Source: Candidatus Micrarchaeota archaeon (GTDB lineage: Archaea > Micrarchaeota > Micrarchaeia > Norongarragalinales > Norongarragalinaceae). Taken from it: a DNA stretch of 64,000 nucleotides. Below, in pieces: positions 6,082 to 25,940 of the stretch. Positions within the stretch are counted from its first letter, which is position 1. Each line of letters starts with the position of its first letter. The stretch lies in NCBI GenBank assembly GCA_964580705.1, contig CAZOKY010000001.1:1224-65223 (forward strand), read 5' to 3'. The position numbers and the translations under genes were made by a program. The notes under the pieces are model-generated. The model saw only the letters and a program-made list of their open reading frames with translations, was not told the origin of the DNA and did not search any database.

Positions 6082-6963
6082 GTGTTTACCGCAAGAAAAA
6101 AAGCTGGGAAAACAAAACCGGCCAAAACCGTAAAAAAAGTCAAACTCGCACCAAAGCAAGAAAAACAGAAAAAAACTCGCGAACCGCTGATACCGCGCTT
6201 TCGAGGCGTATCGCTCCAGCTAGTCGCCGTATTCGTAATGGCTCAATGCATTGCTTTGCTCGCGGGCGCGCAATTCCTCTCGCAACAAGTAAGCTTCGTG
6301 AAAGACTCCGCGAGCATGGGAAACGCGGCGTTCTTATTCGCGTACGTCATCGGAGCCACGCTGTTAATGCTCGTATTGATAAAATACTATAAAGGCAACA
6401 AGCTCTTCATCCTCGTCGAATACGCGCTCATATTCTGCACCGTTGAATTGTTCGCCTCTCTTTTCATCAACGAACTCGCGGCGTTGGCGGCCGCCGCAGT
6501 CGCCGTAAGCGTCCGCGTCGCGTTTCCGCGCCTGCGCAACATCATCCTCGTACTCGCCATAGCGATAGTCGGCGGATTGCTCGGCGCAAGCCTCGACTTG
6601 CTTCCCGCAGCCGCGTTCGCGATTGCCCTCGCCGTTTACGACGTAATCGCCGTCTTCTACAGCAAGCACATGGTTACGCTCGCGAAAGCGCTTGACAAAC
6701 GCGGAGCCGCGTTCGCAGTCCACCTGCAAGACGGAAAAGAAAGCATTCAGTTGGGAACGGGCGACGTCGTTATTCCCGCGATGCTCAGCGTCAGCGCCTT
6801 GCGCATAGCGCCGTTAGCCGGCGTATTCGGACTCGCTGGCTCGGTTCTCGGCTTGATCGTGATAATCGTGCTCCTCGAAAAATTCAAGGGGTACTGGCCC
6901 GCGCTGCCCCCGATTGTTTTCGGCACGCTCGCCGCAATCGGCGCATACGTCTTTCTGGCGTGA
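6082..6963 (+). CDS. presenilin / signal-peptide-peptidase family intramembrane aspartyl protease (A22-like)
   Basis: YD (LAVYDVIAVF), GxGD (LGTGDVV) and PAL (YWPALPP) motifs across multiple TM helices. A Lys-rich 40-aa N-terminal extension precedes TM1; GTG start. Confidence 0.75.
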   Translation: MFTARKKAGKTKPAKTVKKVKLAPKQEKQKKTREPLIPRFRGVSLQLVAVFVMAQCIALLAGAQFLSQQVSFVKDSASMGNAAFLFAYVIGATLLMLVLIKYYKGNKLFILVEYALIFCTVELFASLFINELAALAAAAVAVSVRVAFPRLRNIILVLAIAIVGGLLGASLDLLPAAAFAIALAVYDVIAVFYSKHMVTLAKALDKRGAAFAVHLQDGKESIQLGTGDVVIPAMLSVSALRIAPLAGVFGLAGSVLGLIVIIVLLEKFKGYWPALPPIVFGTLAAIGAYVFLA

Positions 6964-17488: not shown

Positions 17489-18133
17489 ATGAAGTTTTTC
17501 AAGCACGGAGACGTTCTAGCGATTACGCTGCCGGAATCGTTGCGCGCGCAATCCCGCGTCACGGCGGGCGACGAGTACGAGTGGTTCGAAGTAGAACCCG
17601 GATTCTTCGCTCTCGTCGAAAAAAACAAGCTCGGAGGACAAGTCAGGCAATCGTTTACGGTCACGCTAGTCAAAAAAGCTTTCGAGGCAAGCGAAGCAGC
17701 CGCGCAAACAACTGGGGGGACGGTAACGCCGATTCGCGCGGAAGGAAGGCAAACGCCGCGAGGCGCCGGCGGCGCAGCCGGCGGCGGAAGCTGCGCGCCT
17801 GCCAAGACGGAGCTCGAAGACCGCGGTTTCCTGATAGTGCAAAACGAAGTAGAGGCGAAAGCGTTAAGCGTCGCGCTCGAAGGAGACATCAAGGCGGGCG
17901 CGGTGCGAGGCGTGCGCGGTTTCGACAAAAAATATTACATCGCCACGCAAGCCTACCTGAAGGATTTAACGCCGAAAATAAAGAAGATTTTGAGCGAGCG
18001 GCCGCTCGCGGGCGGAGCAATCGCGGCTGCGGCGAAGGAAGACGCGGAAGGAACGCTCGCAGTGCTTTACGTCCTCAAGGAGGAAGGCGAAGTAATCGAA
18101 AAGAAGCGAGGAATCTTCGCCCTCGTAAAGTAA
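17489..18133 (+). CDS. hypothetical protein with a possible N-terminal SpoVT/AbrB-like swapped-hairpin domain
   Basis: MKFFKHGDVLAITLPESLRAQSRVTAGDEYEW resembles AbrB/MazE-type DNA-binding modules. The middle is G/A-rich low complexity. Confidence 0.4.
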   Translation: MKFFKHGDVLAITLPESLRAQSRVTAGDEYEWFEVEPGFFALVEKNKLGGQVRQSFTVTLVKKAFEASEAAAQTTGGTVTPIRAEGRQTPRGAGGAAGGGSCAPAKTELEDRGFLIVQNEVEAKALSVALEGDIKAGAVRGVRGFDKKYYIATQAYLKDLTPKIKKILSERPLAGGAIAAAAKEDAEGTLAVLYVLKEEGEVIEKKRGIFALVK

Positions 18134-20983: not shown

Positions 20984-21072
20984 TGGAAAACACCTTCAGC
21001 CGCTTCGGCCGCGCCGACTTGGTTTTGTTTTAGCAGAGCGAACGATTTAAATGCGCGGCAGCGTAAACTTTT

Positions 21073-22044
21073 TTGATAACAACCATGGCTCAAGACGCGA
21101 CGCAGGATTTGCTCAAGGAATTGCCGCACTTGATAGTGCTGATTGTGCTCGTTCTCGTGCTCCTCGTCGTCGTCACGAAATTCAACTGGGTTCACTGCTC
21201 GCAAATCCCCGGAAACTGGTGCGACATTTACTGCAACGTCGTAATGCGTTCGCACTCCCGCGTGGCGTTGCTTTACGGCGACGACGGAATCGGCGACCCA
21301 ACAACCCTCGAAAACATCATCCGACGCGTGCGGCCGTTCACGTACTTGGAACCCGTCCGCCTCAAAGACGCGAGCTACGGCATGCTGAAAGGATACGACT
21401 TGATCATACTCGAGCACGCGCGCAGCGTTTCCTACAAGGAATCGCGCGCACTACGCGAATACCTCAACACAGGCGGGATGATGATTTGGGTCGGAGATTC
21501 GGCGTCGCGCCACTACTACGACCAAATCGACGTCGCCGACGTCATCGCGCGCACGAGCGACGAAACGTTCAACGAAAGCGGTTTCAGCAAAGCCGAACTC
21601 CAGAAGGCGTTGGACCACGACATGACAATAGACGAAATCGACAACTTCACTCAAAAACTAGTTGAAAAAGGATTTTTCGGAGAGGACGCGCGCAAGCGGC
21701 CCAGCGGCTTCGGCCCGCTTCAAGACGTGTTGTTCGCGAAATACGTCGACGTCGTCAACGTCACGCCTGGAAAGAAAGTCACGATGAAGATAGTCAACCG
21801 CGATAACATGATGGGCCGCGGATTGTTCTACGAATTCGAAATAACGCCGATTCGCTTCGCCGACGTCAAGGAAAACGCGGCGTGGGTCGACAAAGTAACG
21901 CAGATTTCCTACGACGGGAAAGAGTATGCGGGGATTTATGAGACGCGTTACTCGGGGCGCGTGATTTACTCGTCAATTCCTTTGGAGGACTTGAATTCGA
22001 CGACGCTGTTGACGAACATTTTCGATTACCTGGTGCCGTGCTGA
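21073..22044 (+). CDS. membrane-anchored hypothetical protein, paralog A (possible class-I glutamine-amidotransferase-like / ThuA-type fold)
   Basis: N-terminal TM (LIVLIVLVLVLLVVV). Shares LKGYDLIILE ... NTGGMMIWVGD with paralog B. The fold assignment is only a guess. Confidence 0.5.
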   Translation: MITTMAQDATQDLLKELPHLIVLIVLVLVLLVVVTKFNWVHCSQIPGNWCDIYCNVVMRSHSRVALLYGDDGIGDPTTLENIIRRVRPFTYLEPVRLKDASYGMLKGYDLIILEHARSVSYKESRALREYLNTGGMMIWVGDSASRHYYDQIDVADVIARTSDETFNESGFSKAELQKALDHDMTIDEIDNFTQKLVEKGFFGEDARKRPSGFGPLQDVLFAKYVDVVNVTPGKKVTMKIVNRDNMMGRGLFYEFEITPIRFADVKENAAWVDKVTQISYDGKEYAGIYETRYSGRVIYSSIPLEDLNSTTLLTNIFDYLVPC

Positions 22045-22212
22045 AAAACGCGGTCGCAACGCGCGCGGCAAGGCGCGGAAGCCGTTCAAGCCCGTTCAAG
22101 CGAAAACTGAAGGAAAAACTCTCGCGACGCGCCGAGACTGCGCCGAGAATATGTTTATAAATACGGTTAGGGCAATAATGATAAGCACTTAATCTGGAAA
22201 GGGTGGTTCTCG

Positions 22213-23049
22213 ATGATGACGTTGAAGAGACGCGGACAATACGCGAGCGGCGGAAGCCACGCCGAAAGCTTGATTCCACTGGTTTTGATAGTGATTTTAG
22301 CCGTGTTCATAGCCGGCAAAATGGGCATGGTGGACTTGAGCTCGATTCCCGTTGCGGGATCGCTCTTCCCCAAATCCAACATTAAAGTTTTAGTCGTAGG
22401 GCACGCTTCACCCGCCATGGAAACGATGTTGAAAAGCGAAGACTACAGGATGGCGGGAATAATGTACGCGGGCTCGTTCCCGCAAGAGTACATCGTTCCA
22501 GGCGTACTCAAAAATTTTGATATCATCATTCTGCAAGGCACGCAAGTGTGCGACCGCCCCGCGAGAATGGAAATCGCCAACCGCGCGAAGAGCGGAGGCA
22601 AGCTCATCGTCGTAGGCGACGCTTGCACTCGCGTAACCGACGACCCGAACGCGGCAGGATGGGACGTTGGCATCGGAACGCTCGGTGACGTGATTCCAGT
22701 CGAGTACGCTGGCATATTGTTCCACGAGAGCACGGGACGCACTCAAGTGTTCGCTGACGGCAAATTCCGCATCGTGCAACCGTACCACCCGATGTTCAAC
22801 GGCATCATCAACTACGGGTTCTACGGAACGCTGACGAGCGTAAGACCGAGCGCGTCAAGCGATGTTCTAGCTTATGTGGACACGTACGGCGGAAAGATTA
22901 CGGCGCCCGCGACGTTCGCCATCGTGGAAAGCAAGGGCTTCTTGAGCGGCAAGACGCTTTACTTTGCGTTCGACCCAGCGAACATGGACATCAGCTCGCG
23001 CAACATGTTCTTGAACGCCTTGCTTTACGTGCGCGGCGCGAAAGGCTAA
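22213..23049 (+). CDS. membrane-anchored hypothetical protein, paralog B
   Basis: N-terminal RRGQ plus a hydrophobic stretch, then LKNFDIIILQG ... KSGGKLIVVGD and a C-terminus (LNALLYV) homologous to paralog A. A TATA-like tttataaata lies ~60 nt upstream. Confidence 0.5.
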   Translation: MMTLKRRGQYASGGSHAESLIPLVLIVILAVFIAGKMGMVDLSSIPVAGSLFPKSNIKVLVVGHASPAMETMLKSEDYRMAGIMYAGSFPQEYIVPGVLKNFDIIILQGTQVCDRPARMEIANRAKSGGKLIVVGDACTRVTDDPNAAGWDVGIGTLGDVIPVEYAGILFHESTGRTQVFADGKFRIVQPYHPMFNGIINYGFYGTLTSVRPSASSDVLAYVDTYGGKITAPATFAIVESKGFLSGKTLYFAFDPANMDISSRNMFLNALLYVRGAKG

Positions 23050-23201
23050 GCTCGGTTCAGAGCGCTTGAAAAAAGCGCTCGCCCCCTTTATTTTTTCCTT
23101 TTTCTTTTCTCTTTCTTTTTGTTTTTTCGGCTAGCCGCTGGTTTTTAAAAGACGACTGCGCCATATTAAATCGGAAACAACAAATATGAGAAGCGGAAAC
23201 T

Positions 23202-23828
23202 ATGACTGTAACAGAAATAAGTTTGGCGCGTTTTGTGCGAGAACCCGTAATCGGCGTCAGCGAAGCCGAAAAAACATTGGCTAAACAAAAGGCAGGGCGC
23301 AGGCAAATCACGCGCGCCAGAAAAGCTTTGGAAAGCAATATTGAATTGCTTGAACGATTTAGACGCCACTTGGAGTCAAATTCACGCCAAAGCGCAGTGA
23401 CAACCACCAGTTTAAAAGGAAAACTGGGTGGCGCAATCGCCGCTACGGGCGCAGGAATCGCGATAACATCAGTCATTCCGTTTACAGGCGGCGTTTATAG
23501 TGCGAGTCAAGGAACGCCGTGGGGAAAACTCGAATACGCGCGTCAGGCAAGCAGTGACTTCCGTTTGGCTGGTTTGATGTTCGGCGTAGGAACGCTTATT
23601 GCACTAGGACCGTACGCGAAATGGGCTGCTAACAGGGTTTCTCTGACTAGAAGGCTTCAAAGAGCCGGACTGCGGATGACCGGCAAAGGAAAATTCGTCG
23701 TGCGGGAATTTCAAAACGGTGGCGAACTAACGAAACGAGAACACGACAGAAATTATGTTTGGGTTATGACCGCACTTGAACGGAATAAGAAAGCGCTAAA
23801 ACAATTGAATGCGCCTAAACAACGCTAG
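23202..23828 (+). CDS. hypothetical protein with two predicted TM segments; lower GC than its surroundings
   Basis: ORF with Gly/Ala-rich hydrophobic segments (GGAIAATGAGIAITSVIPFTGGV; LAGLMFGVGTLIALGPY). Codon usage is AT-shifted. Confidence 0.4.
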   Translation: MTVTEISLARFVREPVIGVSEAEKTLAKQKAGRRQITRARKALESNIELLERFRRHLESNSRQSAVTTTSLKGKLGGAIAATGAGIAITSVIPFTGGVYSASQGTPWGKLEYARQASSDFRLAGLMFGVGTLIALGPYAKWAANRVSLTRRLQRAGLRMTGKGKFVVREFQNGGELTKREHDRNYVWVMTALERNKKALKQLNAPKQR

Positions 23829-23890
23829 CAAACAAGGCTACTGATTTTTTATTTCCGCGAAACGAACGGTGGTTTCGAACGATTGTAGGC

Positions 23891-24319
23891 GTGGATTTCG
23901 GGGTAACGAACGCTTTCGCCGCCGTGGATTACGACGGTTGCGTCCGCGCGGTGGAAAGCAAGCGCAACTGGGGGCAACGCGATTTCATCGCCCGCATAGC
24001 CGAATTCCGCCCGACGATAATCGCGGGAGACACGCGACCTCCGGCGAAAGCAGTCAAGAAGACGGCGGCGACTTTCCGCGCCATTTTATTTACGCCCAAG
24101 CATTCGTTGACTCTCGAGGAAAAAGCGTTTTTGGTTAGGGATTGCCAGCCGAAGAACGCGCACGAACGCGACGCGCTCGCCGCGGCGTTGAAGGCGTGGC
24201 ACTCGCGCGAAAACCAGTTGCGCAAACTAGACGCGCTCCTCAAGCGCAAAGGACGCGCGGCCGAGCGAGACGCTGCAAGCGAGAAAGTGTTGCACGGCGT
24301 TCGAATGAACGAAGTTTGA
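23891..24319 (+). CDS. putative RNase-H-fold (RuvC/YqgF-like) nuclease-domain protein
   Basis: GTG start. IVGVDFGVTNAFAAVDYDG ... PTIIAGDTRP ... HERDALAAALKAWH resembles RuvC-family motif order (N-terminal D, C-terminal H..DA..AA). Confidence 0.35.
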   Translation: MDFGVTNAFAAVDYDGCVRAVESKRNWGQRDFIARIAEFRPTIIAGDTRPPAKAVKKTAATFRAILFTPKHSLTLEEKAFLVRDCQPKNAHERDALAAALKAWHSRENQLRKLDALLKRKGRAAERDAASEKVLHGVRMNEV

Positions 24320-24431: not shown

Positions 24432-24944
24432 GTGGGCCGAAACATGGACGCTAACGAAGCAGTCACTCAAACTCAGGCAACCGAAACAACGAAAACAACC
24501 GAAACAACTAAAGCGGCTGAGACGCCGCGCGCAATCGAACCGCAAACTACGGCAACGCGCTCCGAATCCCGCAGCGAATCAACTCGCGAGCTAGGTTTCG
24601 ACGAAAACCAAGGCCGCAGCCGAATGCAAAGCGCGCCGCGGGAAGCGCGCGAAGCGCATGCGCCGCGCAGCGGCCGCGACGAAGGCATTATTTTCGTAGG
24701 CAAAAAACCTTTGATGACTTACGTGCTCGCCGTCGTTACGCAGTTCAACGCGGGACAAAACTCCGTAAAAATCAAGGCGCGCGGCAAAGCGATTTCCCGC
24801 GTAATCGACGTCACGCAAGTCGTTAAAAGCCGTTTCATGAACTCGCTGCGCATAACGAATTTCGATGCGGCGACGGAAGTGCTTCCGAACGAAGACGGCA
24901 CCACGAGCAAAGTGAGTTCGTTAACGCTCACGCTAACGAAGTAA
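24432..24944 (+). CDS. albA: chromatin protein Alba with a T/E-rich N-terminal extension
   Basis: The C-terminal ~90 aa (IFVGKKPLMTYVLAVVTQFNAGQNSVKIKARGKAISRVIDVTQVV ... SSLTLTLTK) match Alba. The start is ambiguous (24432, or a later M near 24621). Confidence 0.75.
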   Translation: MGRNMDANEAVTQTQATETTKTTETTKAAETPRAIEPQTTATRSESRSESTRELGFDENQGRSRMQSAPREAREAHAPRSGRDEGIIFVGKKPLMTYVLAVVTQFNAGQNSVKIKARGKAISRVIDVTQVVKSRFMNSLRITNFDAATEVLPNEDGTTSKVSSLTLTLTK

Positions 24945-25011
24945 AATTCTGTTTACACTCTTTTTTTCCGTGCTTCCGAAACGCCGAACAGAAAAACGAA
25001 ATTAAAATCTG

Positions 25012-25377
25012 TTAGCCGCGGCGGGTAGGCTTTATCGGCGGACGTATTTCTCCTTTAGCGATGCCGAGCAATTCCGCTTTCAAACGTTCTAAAGCCATTC
25101 CGTGTTCCAACAAATTTTTTGAATCCCGACGGTTTTCATCCACAGCCTTCAAAACAGCACTGTGAACCGCTGAAACGTCCCGAAAAAAATGATCGGCGCT
25201 GCGGCGCGCATCAGTCGTTCGATTTTTCACCGGATTGCAAACAGTAACCATCCGCCCTTCCGTCAGCTCGTCGAACGAAACGACTAAACCGTATTCTCTA
25301 GCCGCCTTCAACACTACCGAACGGGCGGTAAGAAAAGACTCACTCGGGGACAATCTGAAGTTTCGAGATATCGCCAA
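25012..25377 (-). CDS. hypothetical protein
   Basis: 121-aa ORF; no motif recognised. Confidence 0.35.
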   Translation of the reverse strand: MAISRNFRLSPSESFLTARSVVLKAAREYGLVVSFDELTEGRMVTVCNPVKNRTTDARRSADHFFRDVSAVHSAVLKAVDENRRDSKNLLEHGMALERLKAELLGIAKGEIRPPIKPTRRG

Positions 25378-25409
25378 AACAAACGCCTCCGTGCATTCAA
25401 AAACAGTTT

Positions 25410-25940
25410 TTGAACGCCCGACTTTTTAAACCTCAAGACTCACATATTAACGTCATGAAAACTCCGTTGTGCGAAGCGTGCCTGGCGACGAACTCGTTCT
25501 GCGCGTCGTGCCAGCGCAAGCTAGACGCAGGCGAAGTCACGCGCACCGAACTCGCCATCGCGCAAGCGCTGCGAAGCGAAAACCTTCCAGCTCAAGCGGG
25601 TTTCGAGCGCGCGCTCGAACTCAAGGACGCCGTCCTCGTATTCACGTTGACGCCTGCGGCGGTAATCGGCCGCGGCGGCAAAACCGTTAAAGCAATCGCG
25701 AAAGCCCTCGGCAAGAAAGTGAAGATAATCGATGAAGCCGCGGAGCCGCACGCGAAAATCAGTGAAGTGCTATTGCCAGCGCGAATGCTCGGCGTAAACA
25801 CCGTATTCAAAGCAGGCGGAAAAGAATTCCACGTGCGCGTTCCGCGCGCTGAAGCCCGCCTCCTGCCGGACGCGCCGCTCGCCCTGAAAACGCTGATGAG
25901 CGCGTTCCTCGGCGCGCCCACCGAAATCGTGCTCGAGTGA
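25410..25940 (+). CDS. zinc-ribbon plus KH-domain RNA-binding protein
   Basis: CEAC ... CASC zinc ribbon followed by KH GxxG (VIGRGGKTVKAIAKALGKKVKIID). The likely start is ATG 25455 (MKTPLCEAC). Confidence 0.6.
   Translation: MNARLFKPQDSHINVMKTPLCEACLATNSFCASCQRKLDAGEVTRTELAIAQALRSENLPAQAGFERALELKDAVLVFTLTPAAVIGRGGKTVKAIAKALGKKVKIIDEAAEPHAKISEVLLPARMLGVNTVFKAGGKEFHVRVPRAEARLLPDAPLALKTLMSAFLGAPTEIVLE

Follow-up and report, generated by a model that had tools for sequence, protein, structure and literature searches.

ThuA is a soluble protein encoded together with ThuB and a sugar ATP-binding cassette (ABC) importer, and the H-P and G-K..Y motifs of ThuA-like sequences are general structural features of their fold. 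Two domains of related fold, domain B of the GH42 beta-galactosidases and the GIFT domain of IFT52, serve in oligomerisation or partner binding and not in catalysis. Sugar binding has been proposed for GIFT domains, and the lumenal GIFT domain of Wbp1 has been described in these terms (PMC7226087). In this study, we describe two adjacent genes, named A and B here, from a 64,000-nucleotide stretch of a Candidatus Micrarchaeota archaeon genome (GenBank assembly GCA_964580705.1, contig CAZOKY010000001.1, positions 1,224 to 65,223 of the forward strand; hereafter the window). Their products are interpreted, tentatively and with a confidence somewhat short of even, as a signal-anchored, disulfide-stabilised and non-catalytic pair that would form a hetero-oligomer and act as an envelope scaffold or in ligand docking.

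All positions given below without a locus label refer to the window, and both genes with the features inside them lie on the plus strand. Gene A (21085-22044) encodes 319 amino acids (aa) and gene B (22213-23049) 278 aa, each a putative signal-anchored ThuA/GIFT-like paralog. A is 100% identical to the database protein P0079 and has 23 homologs; B is 100% identical to P0001 and has 78. The list of open reading frames (ORFs) gives A as 21073/21085-22044 and bears out the two adjacent co-directional genes of a preliminary description made from the sequence alone. We placed the start of A at the ATG at 21085 and not at the TTG at 21073, because the identical protein P0079 has 319 aa.

A and B are true, ancient paralogs. 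They align in BLASTP with 23% identity over 253 aa (E=1e-7), and the alignment spans the transmembrane helix, the juxtamembrane segment and the sequence blocks from which their homology had been proposed, LKGYDLIILE versus LKNFDIIILQ and GGMMIWVGDSASR versus GGKLIVVGDACTR. Reciprocal family hidden Markov models (HMMs) each detect the other protein with 34-37 bits, so that the proposed homology holds by both routes. Alignments were made for the B family (A1), the A family (A2) and the distant members (A3). No Pfam or NCBIfam model reached its threshold with A or B, and PADLOC returned nothing for A, B, the ORF inserted downstream of B or the DUF460 gene. The family is outside the curated Pfam and NCBIfam models, whereas its fold superfamily is a known one. 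The literature searched gave no description of the family and nothing on ThuA in Micrarchaeota or DPANN archaea or on extracellular ThuA-like proteins, and searches for ThuA/ThuB biochemistry gave only irrelevant papers.

When 1.84 billion representative proteins were searched with a profile, no more than 246 came out as relatives at E<=1e-3, and the stricter limit of E<=1e-30 left 47 of them; the family is thus small and lineage-restricted. The named homologs all come from Candidatus Micrarchaeota, Micrarchaeia or Norongarragalinales, and the 62 loci found by scanning GTDB species genomes are all labelled Micrarchaeota or unclassified 'archaeon'. Across about 60 Micrarchaeota species the genes are arrayed in the order MazE-like ... 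A, B, DUF460, Alba, KH, with counts varying from gene to gene. A is directly upstream of B in 32-34 of the 54 evaluable species loci. Among the 67 loci compared, DUF460 follows B in 40, often at a distance of 4-80 bp, Alba lies downstream of B in 43 and the KH protein gene in 22; a MazE/AbrB-like homolog is found upstream in 31, at 2.5-5.7 kb from B, and directly adjoins A in locus L004.

The most distant branch of the family ('GKTT..C' type, loci L067 and L068) was counted apart from these species. Both of its loci contain an A-like gene, a B-like gene, a full-length coiled-coil DUF460, Alba and KH; the spacers measure 1-51 bp, and 33-47 bp between the A-like and B-like genes. The B-like proteins of this branch are about 25% identical to the A3 reference in the best local alignment and score 63-80 bits against the B-family HMM. 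Other distant loci possess two to four tandem paralogs. Since distant loci keep either the pair or such arrays, the A/B duplication is considered old and tandem multiplicity typical of the family. The conservation of synteny on which the preliminary description had made its proposal depend is hence found in about 60 Micrarchaeota species and in L067 and L068. Its suggestion of an accessory module is not supported: the window is core chromosome, with genes for ArgRS, LysRS, S7, EF-2, tRNA-splicing endonuclease, MCM, L1, L10 and Alba, and the low-GC gene next to the pair is an insertion of the window only.

AlphaFold2 models were built on the family alignments and compared with the PDB by Foldseek. 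The model of A has a predicted local distance difference test score (pLDDT) of 87.0 and a predicted template modelling score (pTM) of 0.81, and that of B a pLDDT of 83.9 and a pTM of 0.77. B matched 2gk3 (STM3548), 3rht (a GATase1-like protein of Planctomyces; GATase, glutamine amidotransferase), 3soz, the ThuA-like protein 4jqs and the GH42 middle domain with E=5e-10 to 1e-7, and A matched 4jqs, the GH42 middle domain and the IFT52 GIFT domain with E=5e-9 to 3e-7. For the N-terminal domain of IFT52 the structural match to A has E=3.4e-7, while the sequence-profile E-value is only 0.13-0.2. The glutaminase subunits HisH, GMP synthase and PdxT were matched at E of about 1e-5, and the models accordingly show the flavodoxin-like GATase1 fold.

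Sequence profiles led to the same relatives. The profile of the distant members, searched against PDB sequences, detected the GH42 middle domain (E=7e-4) and 2gk3 (E=0.006), as well as 4jqs and IFT52, and 26 of 38 B-family members gave sub-threshold Pfam ThuA matches (best E=1.3e-6). On the grounds of the Foldseek results, the distant-member profile and these ThuA matches, the ThuA/GATase1-like fold surmised in the preliminary description was right, and the models place the family in the ThuA/GH42M/GIFT branch of the class I GATase-like fold. A and B themselves did not match ThuA (PF06283, gathering score 33.4 bits) at E<=1, and their relatives reached only 17-25 bits. The likeness to DUF4159 that had also been surmised was not recovered, as no Pfam match to it was found for A and B at E<=1 or for the 38 B-family members at E<=0.1. 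The best matches of the A1 and A2 profiles to PDB sequences, isochorismatase (E=0.64) and Mex67 (E=0.01), were both judged to be chance, and a viral structure library yielded only the generic GATase domains of herpesvirus FGARAT.

The ThuA/GIFT-like domain comprises residues 57-319 of A (21253-22041), according to model secondary structure and Foldseek, and residues 55-278 of B (22375-23046), according to alignment A1. In A the model also contains a helical insert at about residues 147-216 (21523-21732), the length of which varies in A2. Alignment A1 displays a signature in B made up of G63, D103, R118, D136, G149-W150, H192-P193, E239, K247, Y250 and D254-P255. The same residues are the commonest at their positions in 147 distant members, where G63, D103, G149-W150, H192, Y250 and P255 are conserved in at least about three quarters and R118, D136, P193, E239, K247 and D254 in 54-63%. 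B keeps this family signature complete, whereas A has diverged and lacks most of it, the G-W and H-P signatures included.

Each protein possesses one N-terminal hydrophobic helix, at residues 13-30 of A (21121-21174) and residues 18-35 of B (22264-22317). The single transmembrane helix ascribed to each of them earlier agrees with both the hydrophobic segment and the AlphaFold models, in which helices run from residue 3 to 32 in A and from 20 to 36 in B. By per-column conservation in A2, E12 (0.81) and P14 (0.86) of A are usually conserved and L27, V28 and T31 are nearly invariant. In B a single face of the helix, consisting of E18, I21, P22, L25, I26, L29, F32 and A34, is at least 92% conserved, compared with 34-68% at the intervening positions 20, 24, 27 and 31 and a family mean column identity of 46%. 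A single conserved face of this kind suggests that the helix packs in a specific manner inside the membrane. Removal as a Sec signal peptide was rejected, the helix being among the best-conserved parts of the protein, and the pattern is best explained if the helix is retained in the mature protein as a signal anchor.

The architectures of relatives bear on the side of the membrane at which the domain is located. P0111 has a lipobox. P0123 is composed, in this order, of a Sec-type signal, a ThuA-like domain, a membrane helix and a cytoplasmic ABC ATPase. Several relatives place the domain after a five-helix Yip1 domain, and in P0184 (1868 aa) it is embedded among many CarboxypepD_reg and Ig-like domains. 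The N-terminal flank of B is basic (KRR), and cysteines are even in number in 204 of the 224 full-length family members (91%). Taken together, these architectures, the cysteine parity and the basic flank strongly suggest that the A and B domains are extracellular. The surface location put forward before agrees with the signal-peptide, lipobox and ABC-ATPase fusion forms of the relatives and with the same parity.

The N-terminus of B had been likened to an archaeal class III (prepilin-like) signal, and residues 5-9, K-R-R-G-Q (22225-22239), do contain the K/R-G/A motif of such a cleavage site (A1). Under this explanation B, and ancestrally A, would be cut after K/R-G by a prepilin peptidase and be part of, or anchored like, a type IV pilin-like structure. 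K/R-G-Q, as K/R-R-G-Q, occurs in 56 of the 77 B-clade members; in the shortest of these the conserved Glu of the helix start occupies +5 relative to the Gln, which is its position in pilins, and two A2 members begin with M-(A/K)-R-G-Q-Q. However, the motif is confined to the B clade. It is present in 3 of 85 distant members and missing in the other 82, missing also in 21 of the 77 B-clade members, among them a sub-clade starting M-Y-G..., and within A2 no more than the two members just named show R-G-Q. (The A family was left out of the K/R-G-Q scoring, its helix start E-L-P-H being unfit for the search motif.) The distance to the helix is also against cleavage: counted from the Gln, the Glu stands at positions between +4 and +18 (+10 in B of the window), and in most members, this B included, G-Q and the helix are kept apart by a variable Gly-rich spacer. 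FlaFind-type patterns require hydrophobic residues at +2 and +3, and B would fail such a pattern. Pfam Class_IIIsignal matched neither A and B nor 38 B-family members, a canonical pilin sought in the window for signal comparison was not found, and the gene lists examined hold no pilus ATPase, platform or prepilin peptidase. We consider class III processing very improbable, and the likeness does not stand as a family trait; the K/R-G-Q motif is treated as a probable clade-specific cytoplasmic tail of the signal-anchored protein.

The wider family keeps one or two basic residues followed by (Y/F)-x-E-x-x-I-P where the helix begins, and an acidic, Tyr-rich tail often comes before them. This helix-start motif of the distant members is a conserved cytoplasmic and interface motif. 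Many distant members (P0161, P0176, P0187, P0234 and others) start with M-Y-(G/P) or with an acidic Tyr/Gly-rich tail, for example MAEQMPYYYADEGSG. Elsewhere in the window, at 6082-6963, a gene encodes an intramembrane aspartyl protease of the presenilin/SPP type (Pfam SPP, E=2e-10), which is not a prepilin peptidase; this enzyme is membrane-embedded and could act on signal-anchor helices.

Two cysteines of B, C113 after strand 3 (codon 22549-22551) and C138 after strand 4 (codon 22624-22626), are invariant in B and form a probable disulfide pair (22549-22626). Among 250 aligned family members both are present in 124 and neither in 126, and no member has only one of them. Position 138 is Gly or Ala in 102 of the 147 distant members; A lacks both cysteines and has Ser at position 138 in the A-B alignment. 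Since the two residues occur together or not at all, they fit a disulfide and not a nucleophile. A carries a different set. Its juxtamembrane cluster H-C38-SQIPGNW-C46-DIY-C50 (21196-21234) has each cysteine 95% conserved in A2, C319 (22039-22041), the very last residue of the protein, is invariant in A2, and exactly four cysteines are found in 17 of 23 A members. Together with the family-wide parity, these patterns strongly suggest that the ectodomains of A and B are disulfide-stabilised.

The fold raises the question of enzymatic activity, and the main rival to a non-catalytic pair is that B is an extracellular enzyme, for instance a hydrolase or amidase with substrates from the envelope or the host, that would use the conserved residues of its crest, with A as an inactive regulatory or anchoring pseudo-enzyme partner. 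We retain it because conserved polar residues of B are located where GATase1 enzymes have their active sites: G63 and S66 after strand 1, D114 and R115 after strand 3, G135-D136 and T139 after strand 4, as well as H192 and E239. The loss of G-W and H-P in A is also what pseudo-enzyme partners often undergo. B has no Cys-His-Glu triad of class I GATases with the cysteine on an elbow after strand 4, though; its model has a hairpin and no helix after this strand, hence no canonical nucleophile elbow. C138 was considered as the nucleophile and ruled out by its strict co-variation with C113. It is the sole cysteine near the elbow and dispensable in most of the family, so that B has no Cys nucleophile. 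The nearest structural relatives of known role are non-catalytic, and the H-P and G-K..Y motifs belong to the ThuA-like fold in general. An enzymatic B is, in our judgement, unlikely, and we continue with the non-catalytic pair.

A weak match of A to ABC_transp_aux (PF09822 in Pfam, E=0.0037, 17 bits against a cut-off of 34.7) and a still lower score with GldG (TIGR03521 in NCBIfam, 13.7 bits against 389.85) point in another direction. The pair might serve an ABC-2-type exporter, encoded elsewhere in the genome, as its auxiliary component outside the cytoplasm, comparable to GldG with GldA and GldF. Some A-family homologs carry precomputed PF09822 matches as well, while B gave not even weak Pfam or NCBIfam matches of this kind. 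Furthermore, two accessory B-like paralogs have links to ABC-2 exporters. One belongs to the extra, longer, lipoprotein-type B-like copies of some Micrarchaeota genomes (L048, L051, L057 and L059); in L057 (970-5806) the genes of an ABC ATPase and a 627-aa ABC-2 permease come directly after that of a 632-aa B-like lipoprotein. The other is P0123 (772 aa) in L069 (3694-7319), which joins the domain and an ABC ATPase in one chain and has ABC-2 permease and zinc-ribbon genes upstream. The core A-B locus has no such transporter: an ABC ATPase near a B-like gene was found in only one of the 67 loci, and there beside the accessory copy of L057, and none is encoded in the window. All the HMM scores are far below the curated cut-offs, and GldG has a different architecture, with two membrane helices in about 550 aa. 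An exporter component is accordingly regarded as improbable for the core pair.

The accessory copies also show variation of their own. L051 (5437-8558) contains tandem lipoprotein-type genes for proteins of 634 and 393 aa, the first with the B-like domain. Their N-termini are similar, with a lipobox followed by ...M(D/Q)Y(A/G)Q(E/K)F(K/E)(A/S)DGSS..., and both proteins end in L-S-Y.

Membrane-anchored GIFT domains occur in a further setting, the eukaryotic oligosaccharyltransferase, and the pair could by analogy with Wbp1/OST48 be an accessory subunit of the archaeal enzyme AglB. What speaks for it is likeness at the level of the fold class, A and B matching the IFT52 GIFT domain and the lumenal GIFT domain of Wbp1 having its proposed sugar binding. 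No Wbp1/OST48 chain appeared among the PDB-sequence profile matches or the top 50 Foldseek hits, however, and the AglB motif WWDYG was absent from the window and from all 67 loci scanned. The membrane anchor of Wbp1 is at its C-terminal end, whereas that of A and B is N-terminal. The probability that we assign to an AglB subunit is close to negligible.

Our favoured explanation is a cell-surface assembly of A and B. Each protein would have a short cytoplasmic tail, one retained N-terminal transmembrane helix and a disulfide-stabilised, non-catalytic extracellular domain of the ThuA/GH42-middle-domain/GIFT branch, and the two would assemble as a hetero-oligomer through helices and ectodomains. 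B would be the ligand- or partner-binding subunit, keeping the ancestral crest of G-D after strand 4, G-W, H-P, E and K..Y..DP; in full this crest is G63/S66, D114/R115, G135-D136/T139, G149-W150, H192-P193, E239 and K247..Y250..D254-P255. A, with most of the crest lost, would be the structural partner. This division of roles fits because B keeps the crest and A, lacking G-W and H-P, has a helical insert and its own set of cysteines. The complex may then be an envelope scaffold or a docking or binding module, possibly for glycans, and not an enzyme. A scaffold or ligand-docking role was chosen because the relatives of known role mediate oligomerisation or partner binding and sugar binding has been proposed for GIFT domains; the hetero-oligomer and its binding or scaffold role are both inferred.

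Several points weigh against this explanation. The contact between A and B is a proposed one, and the topology is predicted from sequence logic and the architectures of relatives. About 15-20 species loci have B and no A within 6 kb, which makes B the more universal partner. The polar residues S66, D114/R115, D136/T139, H192 and E239 of B lie at the C-terminal ends of strands, where GATase1 active sites are found. The biochemical role of ThuA-like proteins is itself open, and likeness to structural relatives consequently gives little mechanism. With little probability, the pair could also be the core of a phylum-wide Micrarchaeota surface complex with an envelope function such as host docking or the capture of host-derived glycans or other molecules, and the ABC-2-linked lipoprotein paralogs would then be specialised offshoots of the same module.

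The genes around A and B in the window follow the conserved order with some additions. A MazE/AbrB-like gene for a 214-aa protein (17489-18133, plus strand) is the conserved upstream neighbour, recognised by a weak Pfam MazE_antitoxin match, and three minus-strand genes are situated between it and A. The protein is composed of a weakly MazE/AbrB-like N-terminal domain, a Gly/Ala-rich linker and a C-terminal domain with no assignment. A TATA-box-like TTTAAAT (21046-21052, plus strand) precedes the ATG of A by 33 nt, and a second putative element of this type, TTTATAAAT (22154-22162, plus strand), precedes that of B by 51 nt; GGTGG is located at 22202-22206, upstream of the B start. As read from the sequence, the 168-bp spacer between A and B and the second TATA-like element suggest that B may have a promoter of its own. 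At 22081-22102 the spacer also contains a short tandem duplication, CCGTTCAAG-CCCGTTCAAG, adjoining GC-rich inverted repeats.

Downstream of B, blastn against the nearest relatives, L005 and L006, revealed a window-specific insertion of 815 bp between B and DUF460 (23050-23864), where L005 has 96 bp. Lower in GC (0.468), it carries a 208-aa plus-strand ORF (23202-23828), the middle segment of which is hydrophobic, overlapped by a 139-aa ORF of the minus strand; neither of the two has a homolog in the other 66 loci or a Pfam, NCBIfam or PADLOC match. The 208-aa ORF is outside the conserved unit. The DUF460 gene follows (23891-24319, plus strand; PF04312, E=1.8e-24), the conserved downstream neighbour of B. 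The lower-GC gene and the RNase-H-like gene reported after the pair in the preliminary description are both recovered here, the GC content being 0.468 at 23000-23499. DUF460 is an archaea-only, RNase-H-like and resolvase-related family of which the function is not known (PMC3985635). The protein is short in the window and its close relatives (141-154 aa, the RNase-H-like domain only) and has 320-342 aa with a long Arg/Glu-rich coiled-coil tail in L067 (7033-8061) and L068 (6971-7933). Next is the Alba gene (24432-24944, plus strand; Pfam Alba, E=1.5e-16). Between Alba and KH a second window-specific insertion (24946-25443) of about 498 bp, against 87 bp in L005, contains a 121-aa minus-strand ORF (25012-25377) of which the other loci show no homolog.

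Such neighbours invite the explanation that the pair works with DUF460 and Alba, for instance as a membrane tether for nucleic-acid transactions, which needs either a cytoplasmic orientation or a relay across the membrane. The order B, DUF460, Alba recurs in 40-43 of the 67 loci, often with the short B-DUF460 distances given above, and it is kept, with narrow spacers, in the distant relatives of about 25-30% identity. All the topology evidence, by contrast, puts the domain outside the cell, and neither DUF460 nor Alba carries a signal sequence. Tight linkage of B and DUF460 is not required, since in the window 815 bp of inserted DNA lie between them. The neighbourhood is moreover a long, vertically inherited housekeeping array, and because of this character and the topology we hold it to be highly improbable that the pair works with DUF460 and Alba.

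DPANN archaea have tiny genomes with much conserved content that lacks an assigned function, and surface proteins are obvious candidates for contact with the host. The A/B pair, its fold now defined and its topology and disulfide pattern both probable, gives structural biology and proteomics something definite to work on in the small number of Micrarchaeota grown in co-culture. If it were indeed the core of a phylum-wide surface complex, it would represent an envelope function specific to host-dependent archaea. At present it is one more lineage-specific family and not a new principle, with no sign yet of an unusual mechanism, and it adds a further case of a ThuA/GIFT-like domain outside the cytoplasm.

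The comparison with known systems can be drawn on four sides. ThuA-like proteins (PF06283; 4jqs/4pxy and 4e5v) have the same fold as A and B (Foldseek E of about 1e-7 to 5e-9) and share with the B family the H-P loop and the motifs of the C-terminal G-K-x-x-Y hairpin. A and B differ from them in being putatively signal-anchored, extracellular and disulfide-bonded, in occurring as tandem paralog pairs and in falling below the gathering score; neither a ThuB-type (Gfo/Idh/MocA) oxidoreductase nor a sugar ABC importer was seen in the gene lists of six loci. No structures match B better than the GATase1-like proteins 2gk3 (STM3548), 3soz (STM1381) and 3rht (Planctomyces) (E=5e-10 to 5e-8), which are likewise without an assigned function. 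Their depositors describe them as cytoplasmic and soluble; they are only 15-16% identical to B and share neither the family signature nor the Cys pairs.

The middle domain of GH42 beta-galactosidase (Glyco_hydro_42M) matches both proteins in fold, and among the sequence-profile matches of the wider family it ranks first (E=7e-4). This non-catalytic domain serves oligomerisation (trimerisation) within a large cytoplasmic or secreted glycosidase, whereas A and B have no glycosidase domain. The GIFT/ABC_transp_aux group (GldG, IFT52 and Wbp1/OST48) is reached by weak HMM matches, and GldG and Wbp1 are, like A and B as predicted here, membrane-anchored and extracytoplasmic. GldG sits with ABC-2 exporters, as do the accessory B-like paralogs of L057 and L069, but it has two helices and two domains where A and B have one of each, and the core pair has neither a transporter nor AglB as a neighbour. 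Compared with all these systems, the A/B family brings features together in a new way: a probable signal anchor at the N-terminus, its helix conserved on one face; one ThuA-like ectodomain per protein; clade-specific Cys pairs; and an old tandem arrangement of two paralogs that keeps its place on the chromosome.

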